Sequence record: MH791409.1
Source: Escherichia phage EcWhh-1
Reading direction: 5' to 3' (one strand)
Length of the DNA stretch: 64,000 nucleotides
Each line of letters opens with the position of its first letter. Positions within the stretch are counted from its first letter, which is position 1. The translations under genes and the position numbers were made by a program. Of this stretch, positions 3,672 to 39,228 are shown one piece after another. The notes under the pieces are model-generated. The model was not told the DNA's origin. It did not search any database and saw only the letters and a program-made list of their open reading frames with translations.

Positions 3672-4212
3672 ATAAAAAATCCAGCTCACCAACTTTAGAT
3701 TCGGCGCTCTTATCAGACCCTGGCGCTTTAACTAAAGAGGTTTCATACTGAGTCATTTTGTCGTAAATATCCTGGATAAAAGTTTCATCTGCGATACCTA
3801 CCATGTCGTCGTCATTGGCGTCATAAACGTTATGGACGAAGTAGCTGTATTTCTTTGCCATTTCTTTACGTTCTTTCTTGATACGCTGAACAAAGGCATT
3901 AAAACAAGCCATAGTGATATATGCATGCGGGTTGTCGTATTTTGTTTCGTCGAAGTTATGAAGACCTTTAATAGAGGCTTCGATTCCATCAGCAATCATT
4001 TCTTGCTTCCAAGATTGGGTATATCCGGAGAAGTTGAAACGCTTAGAAAGGCCTTCAGCAATGAGCATAATAGCCAAGCCGATAACGTCGTTCTGACGAA
4101 CTATTTTATTAGGGTCGGTATTTTCTCGGAGTTCTGTTTTCCACTGGGTAATGGCTTTCAGAAGCTCCTTATTATTTACATAGTTATTTTTAGTCAGTTT
4201 AATTTCGGTCAT
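3655..4212 (-). CDS. 55: Late-transcription sigma factor gp55
   Basis: 185 aa; [10 protein letters not shown]...[55 protein letters not shown] near-identical to T4 gp55. Confidence 0.93.
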
Positions 4213-4244
4213 TGTTACCTCAGATAACTCAAATCATAGGTCTA

Positions 4245-4278
4245 TTATATCATAGTATTTGGAGACCCGTTTAAAGCA
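4245..4278 (-). promoter_or_regulatory. Middle/early promoter-like element upstream of gene 55 (TGCTTTAA MotA-box-like, TACTAT/TATAAT)
   Basis: minus strand ATGCTTTAAACGGGTCTCCAAATACTATGATATAATAGACC with GGTCT/AGACC stem. Confidence 0.4.
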
Positions 4279-4542
4279 TCAACGGAGTAAGCAATAAGCC
4301 TGAAATACTGTTTCAAGGATTTGTATGAACTCGGGATAAGAAATTGTATCAGTACATCCATGTTCGGACATATATCCGCAAAATTCTTTAAAAAGTTCCG
4401 GATAATCCCGATGGTTGTATTTGGAAATATGAGACTTCCATACTAAAGAAGTCTCACCACAAACAAACTCAACATCCATACAGTTATCTATTAAGAAAAA
4501 TCCGAGACCTTCATAAGCGAGGGTGGTGGATATGGGTTTCAT
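4279..4542 (-). CDS. Hypothetical protein, 87 aa
   Basis: ORF tiling with 4-nt overlap to downstream neighbour. Confidence 0.5.
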   Translation of the reverse strand: MKPISTTLAYEGLGFFLIDNCMDVEFVCGETSLVWKSHISKYNHRDYPELFKEFCGYMSEHGCTDTISYPEFIQILETVFQAYCLLR

Positions 4543-4805: not shown

Positions 4806-5046
4806 TTAAATAATCCTCAAATTCATTTAATGTCATGCCTTCGTCCCAAGCTATTTTAGGATCGGGCATTTTCATATAAGTGGTCTTAGAGCTTATAGGA
4901 AATATCCTGAAATCGCGATGACTTCCACTTAGCATATTAGCCGCTTTTATAATGGTTTCACTATTATTCATCATAGGGGTACGTTGGAAACCGGCTAAAG
5001 CTTTAAGGACTATTATAACCGATACATCTTCAGGCAAATTACTCAT
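4798..5046 (-). CDS. Hypothetical protein, 82 aa
   Basis: ORF tiling with overlaps. Confidence 0.5.
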   Translation of the reverse strand: MSNLPEDVSVIIVLKALAGFQRTPMMNNSETIIKAANMLSGSHRDFRIFPISSKTTYMKMPDPKIAWDEGMTLNEFEDYLND

Positions 5047-23229: not shown

Positions 23230-23518
23230 ATTTCTTCCAGTCAGAAATCATATAAATCTCTTGGTCATATGTCAAGAGACTACGAGTTATAATACCCTTA
23301 CAAGGCCCTGAGATGAACTCGAGGGTGAAGTAAGGAACCTGTTTCATTAATCGGATGCTCGGGGCATGACATCTAAAACGAGAGCCCTTAAAGGGCCCTG
23401 TCATGAATACATATTCTAATGGATAGAAATAAGCATACTCGAAATTTTTAGTAAGGTCCTCTCTTCGAACCTTACGTGAGAAATAACAGAACTCAAAAAG
23501 TTCTTCATCAGTCATCAT
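23222..23518 (-). CDS. Hypothetical protein, about 98 aa
   Basis: start moved to ATG 23518 (ATGA overlap with upstream stop). Confidence 0.45.
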   Translation of the reverse strand: MMTDEELFEFCYFSRKVRREDLTKNFEYAYFYPLEYVFMTGPFKGSRFRCHAPSIRLMKQVPYFTLEFISGPCKGIITRSLLTYDQEIYMISDWKKYV

Positions 23519-24042
23519 TGCATTCCTATCACAAAGAACAGAGGCAAAGGCTTGTCGCCTTGACACATAAATTTATTAATCATTACCTGGTAAGCTTCAT
23601 AGAACTTATCCATCGCCGGAAGGCGCATCGGCTCTTCGATAATAATCAATAATCGAGTAACAGATAGTCCACGATACTTATGGAAATTGTCTTCATCAAG
23701 GAAACTGCGCACAGTATCATAGACAACAAAACCAGGACCTTCGACTTGGAGATGTGGTTGTGCCTTAGAAACCTGTTTTATTACATTACAAATTTCCCGC
23801 GAGCGATGCGAAGAACTTGACATAACAATCACATCATTACCTTTGGAAACCCAATCAGCTGCGAACTGAGCAAGGGCACTTGTTTTACCTGTTTGGCGTC
23901 CGCCGTCAAGTCGAAGAGTACCAAACTCTTGCATTCTTGAAGCTGGTTCATACCAGGTGTATTGGTCTGAGTCTAAACGTTCAATGGCGCGTTCAGCGAA
24001 GGCGTGCATTAAGGTTAGATAAATGGGAGTTAAAAATTTCAT
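23515..24042 (-). CDS. P-loop-containing protein, 175 aa
   Basis: Walker-A-like GGRQTGKTS; SD AAGAGA + ATG. Confidence 0.5.
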   Translation of the reverse strand: MKFLTPIYLTLMHAFAERAIERLDSDQYTWYEPASRMQEFGTLRLDGGRQTGKTSALAQFAADWVSKGNDVIVMSSSSHRSREICNVIKQVSKAQPHLQVEGPGFVVYDTVRSFLDEDNFHKYRGLSVTRLLIIIEEPMRLPAMDKFYEAYQVMINKFMCQGDKPLPLFFVIGMQ

Positions 24043-24203
24043 AGTAGTCTCTTAGCGGTGGGGCCGTTCCTTGGCACATTAAGTCGTCCATGTATCCGTA
24101 TGTAAACCCTTTACCGCACTTGGGCTCGACCTTATTACAGGTAGGGAAAGGCCCATCACTCAGAGGACGCAACGTTCATGAGGAGAGGGTCGGCTTGCCT
24201 TTA

Positions 24204-24503
24204 TTAGAAAGAACCAGAACCTTTAATTGTGTTCTGACGACCTTTATTTTCTAATTCAGAGTGGTCGATTTCATATGCTTGTGCTACGCCAAAGGCCTTT
24301 TTAACTTTAGCTAAAGAACCTTTAGATGTAACAATATTAAAAGTATTACCTTTGGTAAAATCAACCAAATCGACTTGTACACCCTGTTTACCAAGGCTTG
24401 CTACAATAGCGTCAACATATTCTTGGTCTAAAGTGCCTTGGACTCCAATTTGAAATGCTTTAGGGGCTTTGGCTTCTGTAATAAATTCTTGATAAGTTTT
24501 CAT
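24204..24503 (-). CDS. Internal-protein-like capsid-targeted protein (CTS MKTYQEFITE), 99 aa
   Basis: N-terminal MKTYQEFITEA matches the T4 internal-protein capsid-targeting sequence with (I/L)-x-E cleavage motif. Confidence 0.6.
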   Translation of the reverse strand: MKTYQEFITEAKAPKAFQIGVQGTLDQEYVDAIVASLGKQGVQVDLVDFTKGNTFNIVTSKGSLAKVKKAFGVAQAYEIDHSELENKGRQNTIKGSGSF

Positions 24504-24545
24504 ATTATTCCTTAAGTTGATAGAAGTATTCTATCACGGATTTAA

Positions 24546-24962
24546 TTAAGCGTAAATAGCCTTACCATAATGTTTGTACCAGGTAGGGCGCTGTGCAATT
24601 TTTTCGTCTAAACGGGCTTGTGAAATAGCGATAGAAGCTTCGTGAGGAACATAATCACCACGGAATTCCTGAGGAATATCACTAATGTCCTGGACCGTAG
24701 TATCCTTGATATTAAAACCACGTTTTAAACATTCGGCTATAAGCTCAATTTGTCGCTTACGTAAAAATTCAAGCTTATCGTAAAAGAATGTAACATGGCC
24801 TGTGCCAAGGATAAAAGTAGGACTGATTTTAAAATCACGAACACGTTTACCGTTAGCAACATGCTTACGAACTGCACCGAAAACACGTGGTAATTCACGA
24901 TATTCAGCCATTAAGTGTTGGTCAGCCAATTCAGATACTAAGGTAAGGTTGATACGAGTCAT
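24546..24962 (-). CDS. denV: Endonuclease V (pyrimidine-dimer DNA glycosylase) DenV
   Basis: 138 aa; [53 protein letters not shown]... near-identical to T4 DenV. Confidence 0.93.
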
Positions 24963-24970
24963 TTTTTAAT

Positions 24971-25020
24971 CTCCTGTAGTTGATAGGTCTATAGTATCAT
25001 GCCTACAGGAGAAGTAAACT
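24971..25020 (-). promoter_or_regulatory. PeSL-like early promoter cassette upstream of denV
   Basis: minus strand GTTTACTTCTCCTGTAGGCATGATACTATAGACCTATCAACTACAGGAGATT. Confidence 0.6.
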
Positions 25021-25418
25021 TATTTGTAAGTTTTCATCCAATTCTTAAACAAAGCTGCGACGTCTTTCTCTTTAACGTTCAATTTAACGTCCAGCATTTT
25101 GCCACCAGCGGCACGTGTCTGACGAATCTTAGCCGTACCGGTTTCGCCATTCCACTCAACATAATACTGTCCGGTGTTCATAGCGATACCATCGCCATAG
25201 TCTTCGTTCTTAGAAGTAGTGAATGCTAACTTCATGGTCTTAGAGACACGGGCCTGCATGCCTGTCTGCAGAGCGTTACGAACGCGAATAACCTGAGGAG
25301 TGGCCTGGGTAAGGTTCTCATTCAGTTCTTCAGTGAACTCTTCGGATTCAAACATCGCCAAAAGTTCTTTAGATGCAGGAATTACATTCTCTGCGATAAA
25401 TTCATTATAAGTTTTCAT
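25020..25418 (-). CDS. Internal-protein-like capsid-targeted protein ([13 protein letters not shown]), 132 aa
   Basis: N-terminal [11 protein letters not shown] leader. Confidence 0.6.
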
Positions 25419-25899: not shown

Positions 25900-25929
25900 A
25901 ATACCTCCTGAGTATAGGAGGTATTTATA

Positions 25930-33329: not shown

Positions 33330-33376
33330 TGTTGTTTTGATAGGTCTATAGTATCACGTTTAAAGGAGGTGTAAAC
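33330..33376 (-). promoter_or_regulatory. Early promoter cassette (GTTTAC, 17 bp, TACTAT, TAGACCTATCAAAAC)
   Basis: minus strand GTTTACACCTCCTTTAAACGTGATACTATAGACCTATCAAAACAACAGAGTGAAGGAG. Confidence 0.55.
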
Positions 33377-33410
33377 AACTTTGTGAAATTATTTTTAGAT
33401 TAAACCCCCT

Positions 33411-33435: not shown

Positions 33436-34053
33436 TTATTTACGGGTCTTTTCGAACTGAGCGGCGTCACCTGCAAGGCGGCGGGCTTGACGAAGTTTGT
33501 TATCAATTTCTTCGTGCATAGGCTGGGTATACTTAAGGCCTTCAACCGTCAGGTAAAGACGATAGAGGTCCGGGGTATCTAGGTTGTTAATGTGTTGACC
33601 ATTACGAAGAACATTGAATTCTCGAACAAGTTGTTTAGTTTCGGATTCGATTTCCGACACTAAAGAAGCCAGCTGGTTATATTTTTTAACAATAGTGCTG
33701 GTGTCGAACTTGATTTTAGGTTTAGGAGCTTCTTTTACAGGCTCTGCTTTAGGTGTAGGTTTCGGTGCTGCAACTTTGGTCTGAGCCGCGGGTTTAGAAA
33801 CAGGAGCTTTAGCTGGTTTAGCAGGCTTAGTAGAGCCACCGGCTACGATATCTTTAAAAGCTTTGGAAGCTTTGTAATATTCTTTCTGGCTACTAGTATC
33901 AAAACCATACATATCATAAACGTTTTTAAAGAACTCGGTAGTGGTTTTAGTCCCTGAAATTTTATCATAAGCAGCTTGCCACATATCTTTAGTCATGCGC
34001 ACGCTGGCTTCATTCAGAACGCTTTCGTTCAAAAATTCATTGTAAGTTTTCAT
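33436..34053 (-). CDS. Internal protein III-like capsid-targeted protein (CTS MKTYNEFLNE), 205 aa
   Basis: CTS leader; Lys/Ala/Pro-rich central region (KPAKPAKAPVSKPAAQTKVAAPKPTPKAEPVKEAPKPK) like T4 IPIII; late promoter upstream. Confidence 0.65.
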   Translation of the reverse strand: MKTYNEFLNESVLNEASVRMTKDMWQAAYDKISGTKTTTEFFKNVYDMYGFDTSSQKEYYKASKAFKDIVAGGSTKPAKPAKAPVSKPAAQTKVAAPKPTPKAEPVKEAPKPKIKFDTSTIVKKYNQLASLVSEIESETKQLVREFNVLRNGQHINNLDTPDLYRLYLTVEGLKYTQPMHEEIDNKLRQARRLAGDAAQFEKTRK

Positions 34054-34081: not shown

Positions 34082-34089
34082 TATTTATA
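34082..34089 (-). promoter_or_regulatory. Late promoter TATAAATA
   Basis: exact TATAAATA on minus strand about 28 nt upstream of ATG 34053. Confidence 0.5.
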
Positions 34090-34117
34090 CAAAAAGGCCC
34101 AACCTTTCGGAAGGGCC
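34090..34117 (-). terminator. Rho-independent terminator (GGCCC...GGGCC stem + T-tract)
   Basis: minus strand GGCCCTTCCGAAAGGTTGGGCCTTTTTG; identical hairpin at 34712-34740. Confidence 0.55.
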
Positions 34118-34122
34118 GTAAA

Positions 34123-34677
34123 TCAGTTCTTGTAGAACCGGAACGGGTTCACGTGGAAGGCCAACATAGCTTTAGGGATTTTACGAGACAAAAGACTCTT
34201 AAGCTTCCAGCCACAGTACACGCGAAGGTAAAATGTGATTCCGCCGACCTTAAGATAAGGAACTGAAGCAAATACACCCCAGGCGTCATCATTCCACATC
34301 CACAACCAACCATGGTGAGCTTTATCAGGAGAACCTGATTCTACGTCAGGATTACCACGATAATGGAATTCCGAGCTACAATCACGGCCTAGTTTATGAT
34401 AAGCAAAGTTATAAGCTTTATTTCGCCATAGCCAAGCTACTCTCTGGAGATAAACACCACCAGGCATTTTCCTGATTTTAGCCCAACGTTTAATATGACC
34501 TTTATCGCCGTCAATTGGATTATCGTATGTCATCATCCAATCAAAACCGTATGGCAATTTACCAGTCTTTTTATTATGAAAAGGAACCACAAAAGGCGCA
34601 AGGATAACGGCTAGAACCATAGAGATAAAATCTAGTGGGACCAACAGAATCCAACTCAAATATTTTAAAAGTTTCAT
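34123..34677 (-). CDS. Late-expressed membrane protein, 184 aa
   Basis: N-terminal hydrophobic helices; SD AGGAAATAAT + ATG; late promoter upstream. Confidence 0.6.
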   Translation of the reverse strand: MKLLKYLSWILLVPLDFISMVLAVILAPFVVPFHNKKTGKLPYGFDWMMTYDNPIDGDKGHIKRWAKIRKMPGGVYLQRVAWLWRNKAYNFAYHKLGRDCSSEFHYRGNPDVESGSPDKAHHGWLWMWNDDAWGVFASVPYLKVGGITFYLRVYCGWKLKSLLSRKIPKAMLAFHVNPFRFYKN

Positions 34678-34711: not shown

Positions 34712-34740
34712 CAAAAAAGGCCCAACCTTTCGGAAGGGCC
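34712..34740 (-). terminator. Rho-independent terminator (same hairpin as 34090-34117) + T6
   Basis: minus strand GGCCCTTCCGAAAGGTTGGGCCTTTTTTGT. Confidence 0.55.
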
Positions 34741-34976: not shown

Positions 34977-35051
34977 TGGTATCCCGCCCTGGGATCGAAC
35001 CAGGACCGCAAACTTAGAAGGATCGTATGCTATCCATTACACCAGCGGGAC
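34977..35051 (-). tRNA. tRNA-Arg (anticodon UCU), CCA encoded
   Basis: minus strand GTCCCGCTGGTGTAATGGATAGCATACGATCCTTCTAAGTTTGCGGTCCTGGTTCGATCCCAGGGCGGGATACCA; 7-bp acceptor stem, T-loop TTCGATC, anticodon loop CTTCTAA. Confidence 0.85.
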
Positions 35052-35673
35052 GTAATTTATTTAAAAGACAAGACAAATCGGAAATCTCATCTTTTTCTAA
35101 AACTATCAAATTTTCTAAAGCTTTCCATTTACAAAGGTCTCTATCTCTTTTATATCCTTTGACTTCTATATAAAAATCATAAGTGGGTAAATAAAAATCA
35201 GGAAAATAGAGATGTTCTGAACCTTCCCATTCGTAAGGAATTGGCTTTATTTCATTAGTATATTTGATATTGTGTTCTTTTAAAAACTTAGCAACTTTTA
35301 ATTCCCAGGTCCCTTTAAATTTAAATCCGTCAAACTCGTATGTTTTTACTCGACCAGAAACATTAGAAGCAGAATATGAATCAGGATTATCAAGAACAGC
35401 TTGCCGCATTCTTTTAGAATGTGCTTCTTTGCGTTCATTAGACCATACATATCCTGTATTGGCTTTTCTAAGTTTTTCTCTGGTTTTATCAGAAACATTT
35501 ATTTCTTTACCTAGTTCTTTGGCTTTTGTAAATTGATTGACGCCTTTAAGACCAAAACGAGGGTTATTAGGGCCGCTCATATCCAATCCATTTGGGTTAG
35601 ATTTGCACCGTTTTTCATGTTGCTTTAGTGAATTTAAGTTTTTACATTCTTTAGAACAATATTGGCAAAGCAT
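35014..35673 (-). CDS. Zinc-finger PD-(D/E)xK-type nuclease (putative free-standing homing-endonuclease-like gene)
   Basis: N-terminal CQYCSKEC...HEKRC finger; C-terminal FPDFYLPTYDFYIEVKG resembles PDF...E-x-K nuclease core; start at ATG 35673 with SD GGAGA; 3' end overlaps tRNA-Arg by 38 nt. Confidence 0.6.
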   Translation of the reverse strand: MLCQYCSKECKNLNSLKQHEKRCKSNPNGLDMSGPNNPRFGLKGVNQFTKAKELGKEINVSDKTREKLRKANTGYVWSNERKEAHSKRMRQAVLDNPDSYSASNVSGRVKTYEFDGFKFKGTWELKVAKFLKEHNIKYTNEIKPIPYEWEGSEHLYFPDFYLPTYDFYIEVKGYKRDRDLCKWKALENLIVLEKDEISDLSCLLNKLRPAGVMDSIRSF

Positions 35674-35678
35674 AATTT

Positions 35679-35715
35679 TCTCCATGAATTTTATATAGAT
35701 ATTTATTCATGGAGA
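35679..35715 (-). promoter_or_regulatory. RBS-sequestering hairpin with late-promoter-like AATAAATA in its loop
   Basis: 11-bp inverted repeat TCTCCATGAAT/ATTCATGGAGA; 3' arm contains the GGAGA SD of the nuclease gene. Confidence 0.4.
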
Positions 35716-37721: not shown

Positions 37722-37765
37722 GTTTTGATAGGGCTATAGTATCATCACTAAAGCCCATTGTAAAC
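37722..37765 (-). promoter_or_regulatory. PeSL-like early promoter cassette (GTTTAC, 18 bp, TACTAT; stem GGGCT/AGCCC)
   Basis: minus strand GTTTACAATGGGCTTTAGTGATGATACTATAGCCCTATCAAAAC. Confidence 0.55.
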
Positions 37766-37767
37766 AA

Positions 37768-38040
37768 TTATTTTAAATAAATTGCATACTTTTTATAACC
37801 AGCCGTCTCGTGGCGCAACCCTTTTTCATTAGCAAAACGTTCAATATTGTTAATTTGATTCTGGTCAAGTTCTGAAGTATCAAATACAAAAAAGTTTCGC
37901 TTATTGCCTAAAGTTACATGATTAGTCAAATCAATGTTATAGAGATGATTTATATCATCAATCATAGTCTTAACAGATTTGTTAATTTTTACTTCCTCAT
38001 TAAGAATAGATTCAGCGATAAATTCTTGATAAGTTTTCAT
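37768..38040 (-). CDS. Internal-protein-like capsid-targeted protein (CTS MKTYQEFIAE), 90 aa
   Basis: CTS leader identical to T4 IP leader MKTYQEFIAE. Confidence 0.6.
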   Translation of the reverse strand: MKTYQEFIAESILNEEVKINKSVKTMIDDINHLYNIDLTNHVTLGNKRNFFVFDTSELDQNQINNIERFANEKGLRHETAGYKKYAIYLK

Positions 38041-38041
38041 T

Positions 38042-38266
38042 TTATTCTGCGCCAGCGGCTTTCAAAAGTTTTTTAAGATTGGCTGTACCTTGAGCAGAAA
38101 ACGTGACCTTGCCATCTTTTTCACCGATACTCCCGGTCAATTTAGCGAGCTTATCACTAGGGACTTTTTTAAAATCAGCCAATGTACCGTCAAAGGTTTT
38201 TGTAACAACCGGCAGTTGGTCTTCGTGTTTTTTAGCTTCTGTAATAAATTCTTGATAAGTTTTCAT
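38042..38266 (-). CDS. Internal-protein-like capsid-targeted protein (CTS MKTYQEFITE), about 74 aa
   Basis: start set at ATG 38266 (MKTYQEF) with SD TGGAAATCAAA. Confidence 0.55.
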   Translation of the reverse strand: MKTYQEFITEAKKHEDQLPVVTKTFDGTLADFKKVPSDKLAKLTGSIGEKDGKVTFSAQGTANLKKLLKAAGAE

Positions 38267-38290
38267 TTTGATTTCCATGTGGTTGGTTTG

Positions 38291-38332
38291 TTTTGATAGG
38301 CCTATAGTATCATGTCTATAGACCTTGTAAAC
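38291..38332 (-). promoter_or_regulatory. PeSL-like early promoter cassette (GTTTAC, 17 bp, TACTAT)
   Basis: minus strand GTTTACAAGGTCTATAGACATGATACTATAGGCCTATCAAAAC. Confidence 0.55.
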
Positions 38333-38344
38333 ACCTTTTTTAAA

Positions 38345-39228
<884 letters not shown>

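Follow-up and report, generated by a model that had tools for sequence, protein, structure and literature searches.

Two genes with capsid-targeting leaders bracket denV in Escherichia phage EcWhh-1 as probable members of an internal-protein cassette array

In Escherichia phage EcWhh-1 (sequence record MH791409.1), two small open reading frames (ORFs) on either side of the endonuclease V gene denV begin with the same capsid-targeting leader and continue into different bodies, which raises two questions: whether they encode proteins that enter the phage head, and by which unit such bodies are exchanged between phages. The window analyzed here is a stretch of 64,000 nucleotides (nt) of this genome. 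The initial annotation had placed the two ORFs, called ip132 and ip99 here, around denV, and both were recovered there (Table 1). With a probability of about 0.8, both are real, conserved genes for T4-type internal head proteins (IPs) that, by analogy with T4, would be injected and act against host defence, and that sit in a cassette array. Every gene discussed lies on the minus strand, in the order nudE, e, ip132, denV, ip99 and vs.8 from high to low coordinates. The ~3-kb stretch around denV has 95% identity to the Dhakavirus genomes QL01, IME281, MX01 and JS10, and the window is, as judged from its sequence, a Dhakavirus, a T4-type coliphage of the JS98/JS10 group. The GenBank record of IME281 has an identical arrangement, in which the 132-amino-acid (aa) gene is a "hypothetical protein" and the 99-aa gene an "internal head protein", the annotation that ip99 also carries in JS10.

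The determinants of capsid targeting are known by experiment: Tyr4 and Phe7 are needed for targeting, and position 8 and Glu10 for processing (PMC9026906). Both ORFs have the complete leader, with Y4, F7, I/L8 and E10 all present and I8-x-E10 in each. A scan of all six frames with the regular expression M-[KR]-x-[YFW]-x-[EQD]-[FYL]-[ILVM]-x-[ED] returned exactly six ORFs, with the consensus start MKTY-x-EF-[IL]-x-E; these are the same six that the initial annotation had counted, against three such proteins (Ip1-3) in two loci of T4 (PMC12373910). At least ten more IPs are reported from related phages (Repoila 1994, as cited in PMC12373910). Y4 and F7 are found in 6/6 of the leader genes of the window, as is [LIV]xE at position 8. 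Further, the 12-mer ATGAARACNTAY occurs 7 times in the window, where 0.33 occurrences are expected and shuffles contain a maximum of 3, the seventh copy being the in-frame C-terminal MKTYK* of ip132; a repeat finder independently grouped the six leaders as one 39-nt family (D2).

A lack of likeness at the nucleotide level had been named beforehand as the result that would overturn the proposal of a shared leader module. The likeness is present in the nucleotides (20-30/30 nt between pairs), and the proposal therefore stands on this point. In particular, pairwise identity among the six genes is high over the first 30 nt only, dropping to the level of chance directly beyond them, with 5-13/30 in the next 30 nt and 6-12/30 in the 30 nt upstream. 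The leaders of ip74 and ip90, which are 226 nt apart, agree at 27/30 nt. Moreover, the likeness is slightly greater than conservation of the residues by itself would produce: the codons for identical residues are the same in 76/105 cases, compared with 55.6 +/- 7 expected from the codon usage of the window (P about 0.006). For example, the leaders of ip99 and ip74 share 35/36 nt and diverge completely beyond, and BLASTP aligns only residues 1-12 of the two proteins; the six leader genes belong to different PHROG families.

The bodies of the two ORFs have different histories of recognition. ip99 starts with MKTYQEFITEAKAPK and has the leader MKTYQEFITE, so that its predicted mature product, beginning at residue 11 (AKAPKAFQIGVQGTLDQEYVDAIVASLGK), comprises 89 aa (9.5 kDa, isoelectric point (pI) 9.0). 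It matches phrog_2667, "internal head protein", over its full length (E 5.4e-43), shares 50% identity with T2 Ip7 over 100 aa (E 8.5e-25) and 94-95% with the Ip7 proteins of VR7 and VR25, and its tblastn search matched 283 phage records of a family named Ip7 in T2 and VR7. On these similarities, ip99 is a member of the known Ip7 family of internal head proteins. A derivation as an IPII orthologue displaced across denV was rejected, as BLASTP against T4 IPII aligns residues 1-12 only.

The predicted mature product of ip132, which would begin with NVIPASK at residue 11, comprises 122 aa (13.7 kDa, pI 8.8). The gene belongs to phrog_15461 (unknown function; E 1e-91), and tblastn found it at 40-100% identity in 49 phage records across four host genera. 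The phages concerned are Dhakavirus, the Klebsiella Marfa group, Serratia 4S and Erwinia Cronus/IT22, and it is annotated as hypothetical in each of the 40 records listed among these 49. A search of 5.8 billion proteins and 1.8 billion representatives added a handful of further relatives, and an exhaustive profile search gave only 7 representatives, all phage-like and leader-bearing where complete; every complete relative starts with a leader resembling the capsid-targeting one. The C-terminal MKTYK*, a 12-nt in-frame copy of the leader start, was considered as a recombination scar and rejected. The tails of homologues vary (WMKSYK, WMKVHK, WMKTHK, WLKK, WMKTHAK in 4S and WLK in Cronus), and the tail is therefore a native feature of the ip132 family, older than the split between Dhakavirus and Marfa. 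In a metagenomic relative of 194 aa (P0040), a divergent leader (MKSFDQYIMES) and an extra N-terminal domain of ~90 residues precede the ip132 core, which therefore occurs in a two-domain injected-protein format as well.

What, then, is exchanged? A comparison of the leader-gene flanks, as the initial annotation had advised, revealed common 5' and 3' edges across genera. In the slot between e and denV, the 5' edge (..ACTTGGAAAGCAT-ATGAAAACyTATAA..) is common to the window, Marfa and Q7622, and it leads into the ip132 body in the first two and into an unrelated 91-aa body in Q7622. In ST0, a third unrelated body, of 93 aa, follows an e end that is nearly identical but overlaps by 4 nt instead of 14 nt. 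Between the window and Q7622, the identities per 15-nt block are 13, 12, 13 and 15 upstream, 15 and 11 in the leader, and 5, 6, 6 and 3 beyond it. At the 3' edge of this slot, 0-5 nt separate the end of every body from the GTTTAC -35 box that belongs to the early promoter of denV. One e end and leader are thus joined to three unrelated bodies, each ending at the denV -35 box, which identifies the cassette from leader to promoter as the exchangeable unit; the part that varies between phages runs from the leader end to the next promoter cassette. The slot downstream of denV begins with a homologous intergenic promoter region, followed by Ip7 in the window or IPIII in Marfa. At the vs.8-side end of the array, the motif TAATAAAG and then a conserved block of ~160 nt are present in the window, VR26, Q7622 and Marfa, where they follow ip99, Ip7, a 97-aa gene and IPIII, respectively.

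The promoter cassettes are repeats of the early-promoter/stem-loop (PeSL) type. Five copies (families D1/D3; 48-91 nt, 63-81% identity) lie within 23.4-39.1 kb, and 4/5 are located just downstream of a leader gene (ip132, ip205, ip90 and ip69). The copy in the ip132-denV gap consists of a D3 repeat (24980-25027) with the GTTTAC -35 box, a GATACTATAG -10 region and a hairpin of -18.1 kcal/mol (z -3.9), and an equivalent promoter/stem-loop element also lies upstream of T4 denV. The three copies that were folded (ip132, ip69 and ip90) gave hairpin energies of -16 to -18 kcal/mol, with z from -3.2 to -4.1 versus shuffled controls. The window therefore contains what characterizes PeSL elements, a repeated intergenic sigma-70-type early promoter with a stable stem-loop beside accessory ORFs; PeSL cassettes were shown by experiment to mediate modular shuffling in RB49 and phi1 (PMC2839356).

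Table 1. Positions of the leader genes, their boundaries and neighbouring features in the window
Feature	Position	Strand	Basis or remark
ip132, 132-aa ORF with capsid-targeting leader	25020..25418	-	phrog_15461
ip132 leader, codons 1-10; cleavage predicted after Glu10	25389..25418	-	determinants per PMC9026906
e/ip132 overlap, 14 nt; last e codons (..AYENL*) are the ip132 leader in another frame	25405..25418	-	
gene e, T4-type lysozyme, 164 aa	25405..25899	-	
TATAAATA late-promoter motif 5' of e	25922..25929	-	
early-promoter/stem-loop cassette (PeSL type) in the ip132-denV gap; 3' boundary of the ip132 slot	24963..25019	-	
denV (endonuclease V), 138 aa	24546..24962	-	
sigma-70-like promoter TTTACG-17-TGnTAGAAT, overlapping the denV end, 5' of ip99	24528..24556	-	
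ip99, Ip7-family internal head protein, 99 aa	24204..24503	-	leader 24474-24503
conserved non-coding stretch separating ip99 from vs.8; boundary of the IP array on the vs.8 side	24043..24203	-	
vs.8 homologue, conserved right-hand flank of the locus	23515..24042	-	
ip205, leader gene at a third locus, not IPIII	33436..34053	-	PeSL copy downstream 33337-33384
ipI-locus block downstream of 57B	37768..38554	-	PeSL copies 38293-38340, 37725-37772
ip69	38345-38554	-	
ip74	38042-38266	-	
ip90	37768-38040	-	

Comparison with the IP loci of related phages, a second check that the initial annotation had proposed, identifies the e-vs.8 interval as a variable array (Table 2). Both ORFs lie in this interval, which is the T4 ipII/ipIII locus and one of the two known hypervariable IP loci; ip205 lies outside the polymorphic ones. 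Polymorphic IP loci with a conserved leader go back to Repoila et al. 1994, as cited in PMC3012670, PMC9026906 and PMC12373910. From the gene orders compared, IP genes on both sides of denV appear as the rule outside T4. The slot of a given family differs as well: relative to denV, IPII lies toward e in T4 and Marfa but toward vs.8 in ST0, and the Ip7 family is in the ipI locus next to 57B in T2 and beside denV in the window. For ST0, the count depends on a fourth gene, annotated as an IP, that does not have the canonical MKTY start.

Table 2. Gene order between vs.8 and e in the window and related phages ("/" marks a gene start that overlaps the e end)
Phage	Gene order	IP genes
fFiEco06 (Tequatrovirus)	vs.8 - denV - e	0
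T4	vs.8 - denV - ipII - ipIII - e	2
VR26 (Gaprivervirus)	vs.8 - ip7 - 104-aa IP - denV - e	2
ST0 (Mosigvirus)	vs.8 - IPII - 104-aa IP - 84-aa gene annotated IP - denV - 93-aa IP/e	3 or 4
Q7622 (Kanagawavirus)	vs.8 - 97-aa IP - denV - 91-aa IP/e	2
Marfa	vs.8 - Ip7-like - IPIII - denV - IPII - ip132/e	4
JS10	vs.8 - Ip7 - denV - ip132 - ipIII - e	3
Window and IME281	vs.8 - Ip7 - denV - ip132/e	2

The junction of e with the adjacent IP gene records part of this history. The C-terminus of lysozyme reads ..AY* in VR26, ..AYI* in ST0, ..AYR* in JS10 and ..AYK* in both 4S and Cronus. The window, Marfa and Q7622 have ..AYENL* at this place, encoded by TAT GAA AAC TTA TAA, which is the IP leader ATGAAAACTTATAA in another frame. 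Three states of the junction are found: an 8-nt spacer (Cronus), a 4-nt ATGA overlap (4S, ST0) and the 14-nt overlap of the window, which also occurs in IME281, Marfa and Q7622. The e/ip132-type adjacency is common to four genera and present in Marfa, 4S and Cronus, and it is therefore probably the older state, with the promoter cassette and ipIII of JS10/JS98 probably representing an insertion. Derivation of the window arrangement from a JS10-like one by leader-by-leader deletion was rejected, because this would retain the e-ipIII intergenic promoter, which is absent here.

Two observations on T4 touch the same junction. T4 lysozyme ends in ..AYKNL* (TAT AAA AAT CTA TAA; T4 stretch 5004-5020), with 11/14 nt matching the overlapping leader, and its last three codons may be a decayed fossil of an overlapping IP leader. 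Further, the T4 sequence downstream of ipIII (..ACTTGGGACGCTTAAATAAAAGCAGTTTAC..) repeats the e 3' end and the start of the promoter cassette (..ACTTGGGACGCGTATAAAAATCTATAAAGCTGTTTAC..), the two copies being at 4220-4334 and 4917-5020 of the stretch compared; the ipIII cassette thus lies between two copies of a direct repeat, the arrangement that insertion through recombination at this site would leave. Together with its upstream promoter/stem-loop (24546-25019), denV has 92.8% nt identity to one Tequatrovirus T4 record, and DenV differs from T4 DenV at 3/138 residues, whereas most Tequatrovirus and Mosigvirus records are only ~76-79% identical; this unusual likeness to T4 suggests that the T4 lineage and the Dhakaviruses exchanged the denV cassette recently.

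The initial annotation had gone further and proposed the ~30-nt leader itself as the substrate of recombination, a claim that holds in part. Homology between genera does end at the leader end, but selection for packaging predicts the same pattern. The chances are about even that the leader is a passenger, kept only by the need for packaging and cleavage, while swaps proceed via PeSL repeats and the flanking homology of e, denV and vs.8, and recombinants that keep the leader survive. The leader is short (30 nt at roughly 80% identity), and PeSL repeats, with the lengths and identities given above, offer more homology and have experimental support as agents of shuffling (PMC2839356); small (<50 bp) patches of homology are enough for T4 recombination (Singer et al. 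1982, as cited in PMC2839356). Moreover, leader identity is 24.9/30 within a genome, 25.6/30 for the same family across genomes and 24.1/30 for unrelated pairs. Leaders are thus no more alike within than between genomes (24.1-25.8/30), which argues against general gene conversion, and a general concerted evolution of leaders within genomes was rejected, with few identical pairs only. Between the window and JS10 copies of ip132 (JS10 stretch 3848-4246), nt 12-108 contain 18/23 mismatches, with 11 packed into nt 27-51, against 5 in the other 290 nt; this concentration places a mosaic crossover in the ip132 body and not in the leader, as expected for ordinary allelic recombination.

Other observations do not sit well with a passenger leader. 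Synonymous identity is found in some within-genome pairs, namely ip99/ip74 (35/36), Marfa ip132/IPII (29/30 nt) and T4 ipII/ipIII (30/30 nt, or ~50 nt including the upstream ribosome-binding region and the first 2 nt after the leader), and the codon identity among the six leaders of the window exceeds its expectation. In addition, the e/IP slot has no promoter cassette on its 5' side, which leaves e and the leader as the only places for the 5' crossover. Overall, promoter cassettes and flanking genes are better supported as vehicles of recombination than the leader, whose service as a substrate is tentative, with the odds leaning against it.

The route that the proteins would take is drawn from work on T4 (PMC9026906, PMC3012670, PMC12373910). 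By analogy with IPI-III, the ten N-terminal residues would direct each protein to the prohead scaffolding core, where the prohead protease gp21 would cleave after Glu10; the mature, mildly basic proteins of 9.5 and 13.7 kDa would remain in the head with the DNA, would be injected with it at the next infection, and would most likely neutralize a host defence acting on the incoming DNA. In T4, the type IV restriction enzymes of the GmrSD kind are inhibited by Ip1, Ip2 and Ip3, with a different enzyme as the target of each; this anti-restriction role was established in 2007 and 2025 (PMC12373910). At the level of the genome, the e-vs.8 interval would be a cassette array in which each cassette has the leader as its 5' edge and a PeSL element or the TAATAAAG block as its 3' edge; recombination at these conserved edges would exchange, add or remove bodies from phage to phage, and denV itself would be a promoter-carrying unit embedded in the array. 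The timing of ip132 can be read from its junction with e. Its start codon precedes the e stop by 14 nt, and a TATAAATA late motif lies 23 nt upstream of the e start; because ip132 starts inside the e end, it is located downstream of this motif, which is the nearest late promoter able to drive e and the overlapping ip132. The arrangement suggests that ip132 is probably expressed late and probably coupled translationally to e, which would be fitting for a prohead component.

Several observations weigh against this reading. ip99 has no TATAAATA late motif of its own, a sigma-70-like promoter being present. The one published screen detected no reproducible inhibition of the tested GmrSD variants by ip4-10, a set that includes ip7 (PMC12373910 and its supplement). 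Packaging and cleavage of ip99 and ip132 are predicted from the genes; those for the gp21 protease and the gp22 scaffold are not part of the 64-kb window, and their presence would follow from the ~95% identity to complete Dhakavirus (Tevenvirinae) genomes. In Pfam, none of the six leader proteins reaches the curated cut-off, and ip132 has no match at all; sequence searches of the PDB with the ip99 and ip132 bodies gave no relatives, only noise at E ~0.01. The AlphaFold2 model of ip132 is unreliable (predicted local distance difference test (pLDDT) score of 54.7); that of ip99 (pLDDT 72) has a generic beta-alpha-beta, ferredoxin/ACT-like fold, for which Foldseek found no match in the PDB at E <= 0.001. 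The function of either body is not readable from sequence or structure, and the searchable literature yielded no virion proteomes for these IP families.

The proteins could be packaged and yet be structural, serving head assembly or the charge neutralization or condensation of DNA and not anti-defence. This is unlikely, although the mature products have a mildly basic pI of 8.8-9.0, head assembly is slowed and burst size reduced in T4 IPIII mutants, low salt allows IPs to bind DNA (PMC9026906), and ip7 has no reproducible GmrSD target in the published screen. An arms race better accounts for the extreme turnover of bodies among close relatives and for the complete absence of IP genes at this locus in some Tequatroviruses; in addition, ip69 of the same genome is acidic (pI 4.1), and all three T4 IPs have defence targets (PMC12373910). 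That one or both ORFs carry a relic leader, unpackaged or mistimed in expression, is highly improbable: the sigma-70-like promoter of ip99, with no TATAAATA, and the weak ribosome-binding sequence of ip132 would suit it, but a relic would decay, and the leader is invariant in 11/11 aligned Ip7-family sequences and at 8/10 residues in 7 aligned ip132 members, the distant ip132 homologue of 4S (42.7% identity) retains Y4, F7, L8 and E10 in its diverged leader (MKSYNQFLDE), ip132 overlaps e, itself preceded by a TATAAATA motif, and T4 ipII and ipIII likewise have no TATAAATA within 120 nt upstream of their starts, yet their products are packaged at about 360 copies per head (PMC9026906).

Injected anti-defence proteins encoded in a cassette array thus remain the preferred reading. 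A bolder extension of it is doubtful: leader and PeSL element would form an integron-like cassette format for injected anti-defence proteins, moving between genera and among at least three loci (e-vs.8, 57B-tRNA next to acb1, and the ip205 site); the ip132 and ip205 families would inhibit host defences that have no matched phage counter-measure; and illegitimate recombination at the leader with the e end would have left the fossil in the last three T4 lysozyme codons.

The remaining leader genes and their surroundings differ from those at denV. The initial annotation had labelled the gene at 33436-34053 as IPIII-like, and this label was wrong: BLASTP against T4 IPIII aligns residues 1-25 only (E 0.004), and because the alignment stops there, ip205 is not IPIII-like. 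ip205 belongs instead to phrog_2280 (unknown function), is hypothetical in all 25 records listed among 132 matches, and lies outside both classical IP loci with a TATAAATA motif of its own (34082-34089). Searches of the window by tblastn with T4 IPII, T4 IPIII and JS10 IPIII matched leaders only, and no IPII or IPIII orthologue is present in the window. ip69 belongs to phrog_23867 (unknown function).

Four neighbouring features were also observed. Directly upstream of the three-gene IP block, 57B (38551-39006) matches Pfam Acb1 (anti-CBASS; E 1.5e-58), and its stop is overlapped by the ip69 start by 4 nt; the ipI locus thus directly adjoins a known anti-defence gene. A perfect 27-nt direct repeat (a terminator hairpin, AAAAAGGCCCAACCTTTCGGAAGGGCC) is found at 34091-34117 and 34714-34740, each copy beside a TATAAATA motif; the copies bracket a 184-aa DUF7338 gene (34123-34677) just upstream of ip205 and look like a duplicated terminator/late-promoter unit bounding an inserted cassette. 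Between the IP loci, a 223-aa ORF (35014-35685) with an N-terminal Cys/His-rich motif has a sub-threshold match to Pfam Phage_endo_I (E 2.7e-5, 24.3 bits against a cut-off of 29.1) and may be a homing-type endonuclease. At the vs.8 flank, the ~160-nt block contains CCTGTAATAAGGTCGAGC, which in T4 is part of the sequence that encodes the N-terminus of a longer vs.8, apparently read in another frame; vs.8 is 219 aa long in T4 and 175 aa in the window, a difference that could come from a mis-set start or a frameshift in one lineage.

What the locus adds is specific. The ip132, ip205 and ip69 families are recognized here as leader-bearing, and no matched database entry names them internal proteins; the exchangeable cassette is delimited cleanly across genera, and a third site of leader genes is found. 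Host immunity encounters injected internal proteins before any other phage product, and since all three T4 IPs are specific inhibitors of type IV restriction, each new leader-tagged body becomes a candidate anti-defence protein. The cassette limits can aid automated mining, in which the leader is searched for and the promoter cassette marks where to stop, and they are useful for engineering T4-type heads for cargo delivery. The known picture of how IP loci work is unchanged by the window: the locus represents the classical T-even internal-protein system and is a further example of a hotspot of gene swapping recognized since 1994. The leader with exchanged bodies was described in that year and PeSL-mediated shuffling in 2010 (PMC2839356), so the idea is not new.

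Compared with T4 IPI-III and the T-even proteins Ip4-Ip12 (Repoila et al. 1994; Mullaney & Black 1996), the window has the same ten-residue leader, gp21 motif and small unrelated bodies, and the same hypervariable e-denV and 57B-tRNA loci, at which the number, order and identity of genes vary between phages. It differs in that 0/6 of its leader genes are orthologous to T4 IPII or IPIII and that ip132, ip205 and ip69 belong to families of unknown function; unlike T4, its IP genes flank denV on both sides, and ip205 occupies a third locus with its own late promoter. The Ip7 proteins of T2 and VR7 (phrog_2667) resemble ip99 over the full length, but T2 Ip7 lies in the ipI locus beside 57B, whereas ip99 lies downstream of denV. 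The T4 Ip1-Ip3 inhibitors of GmrSD (PMC12373910) share with the window proteins the delivery route and the genomic hotspot, from which the same class of function would be expected; in contrast, the window bodies have no sequence or confident structural similarity to them, and Ip7 gave no reproducible match in the screen. Finally, the PeSL elements of RB49 and phi1 (Arbiol et al. 2010, PMC2839356) are likewise repeated intergenic sigma-70 promoters with a hairpin, which flank small accessory genes in hyperplastic regions and mark the boundaries of insertions, deletions and replacements; the cassette of the window differs from them in having a PeSL element on its 3' side only, its 5' edge being the coding leader.

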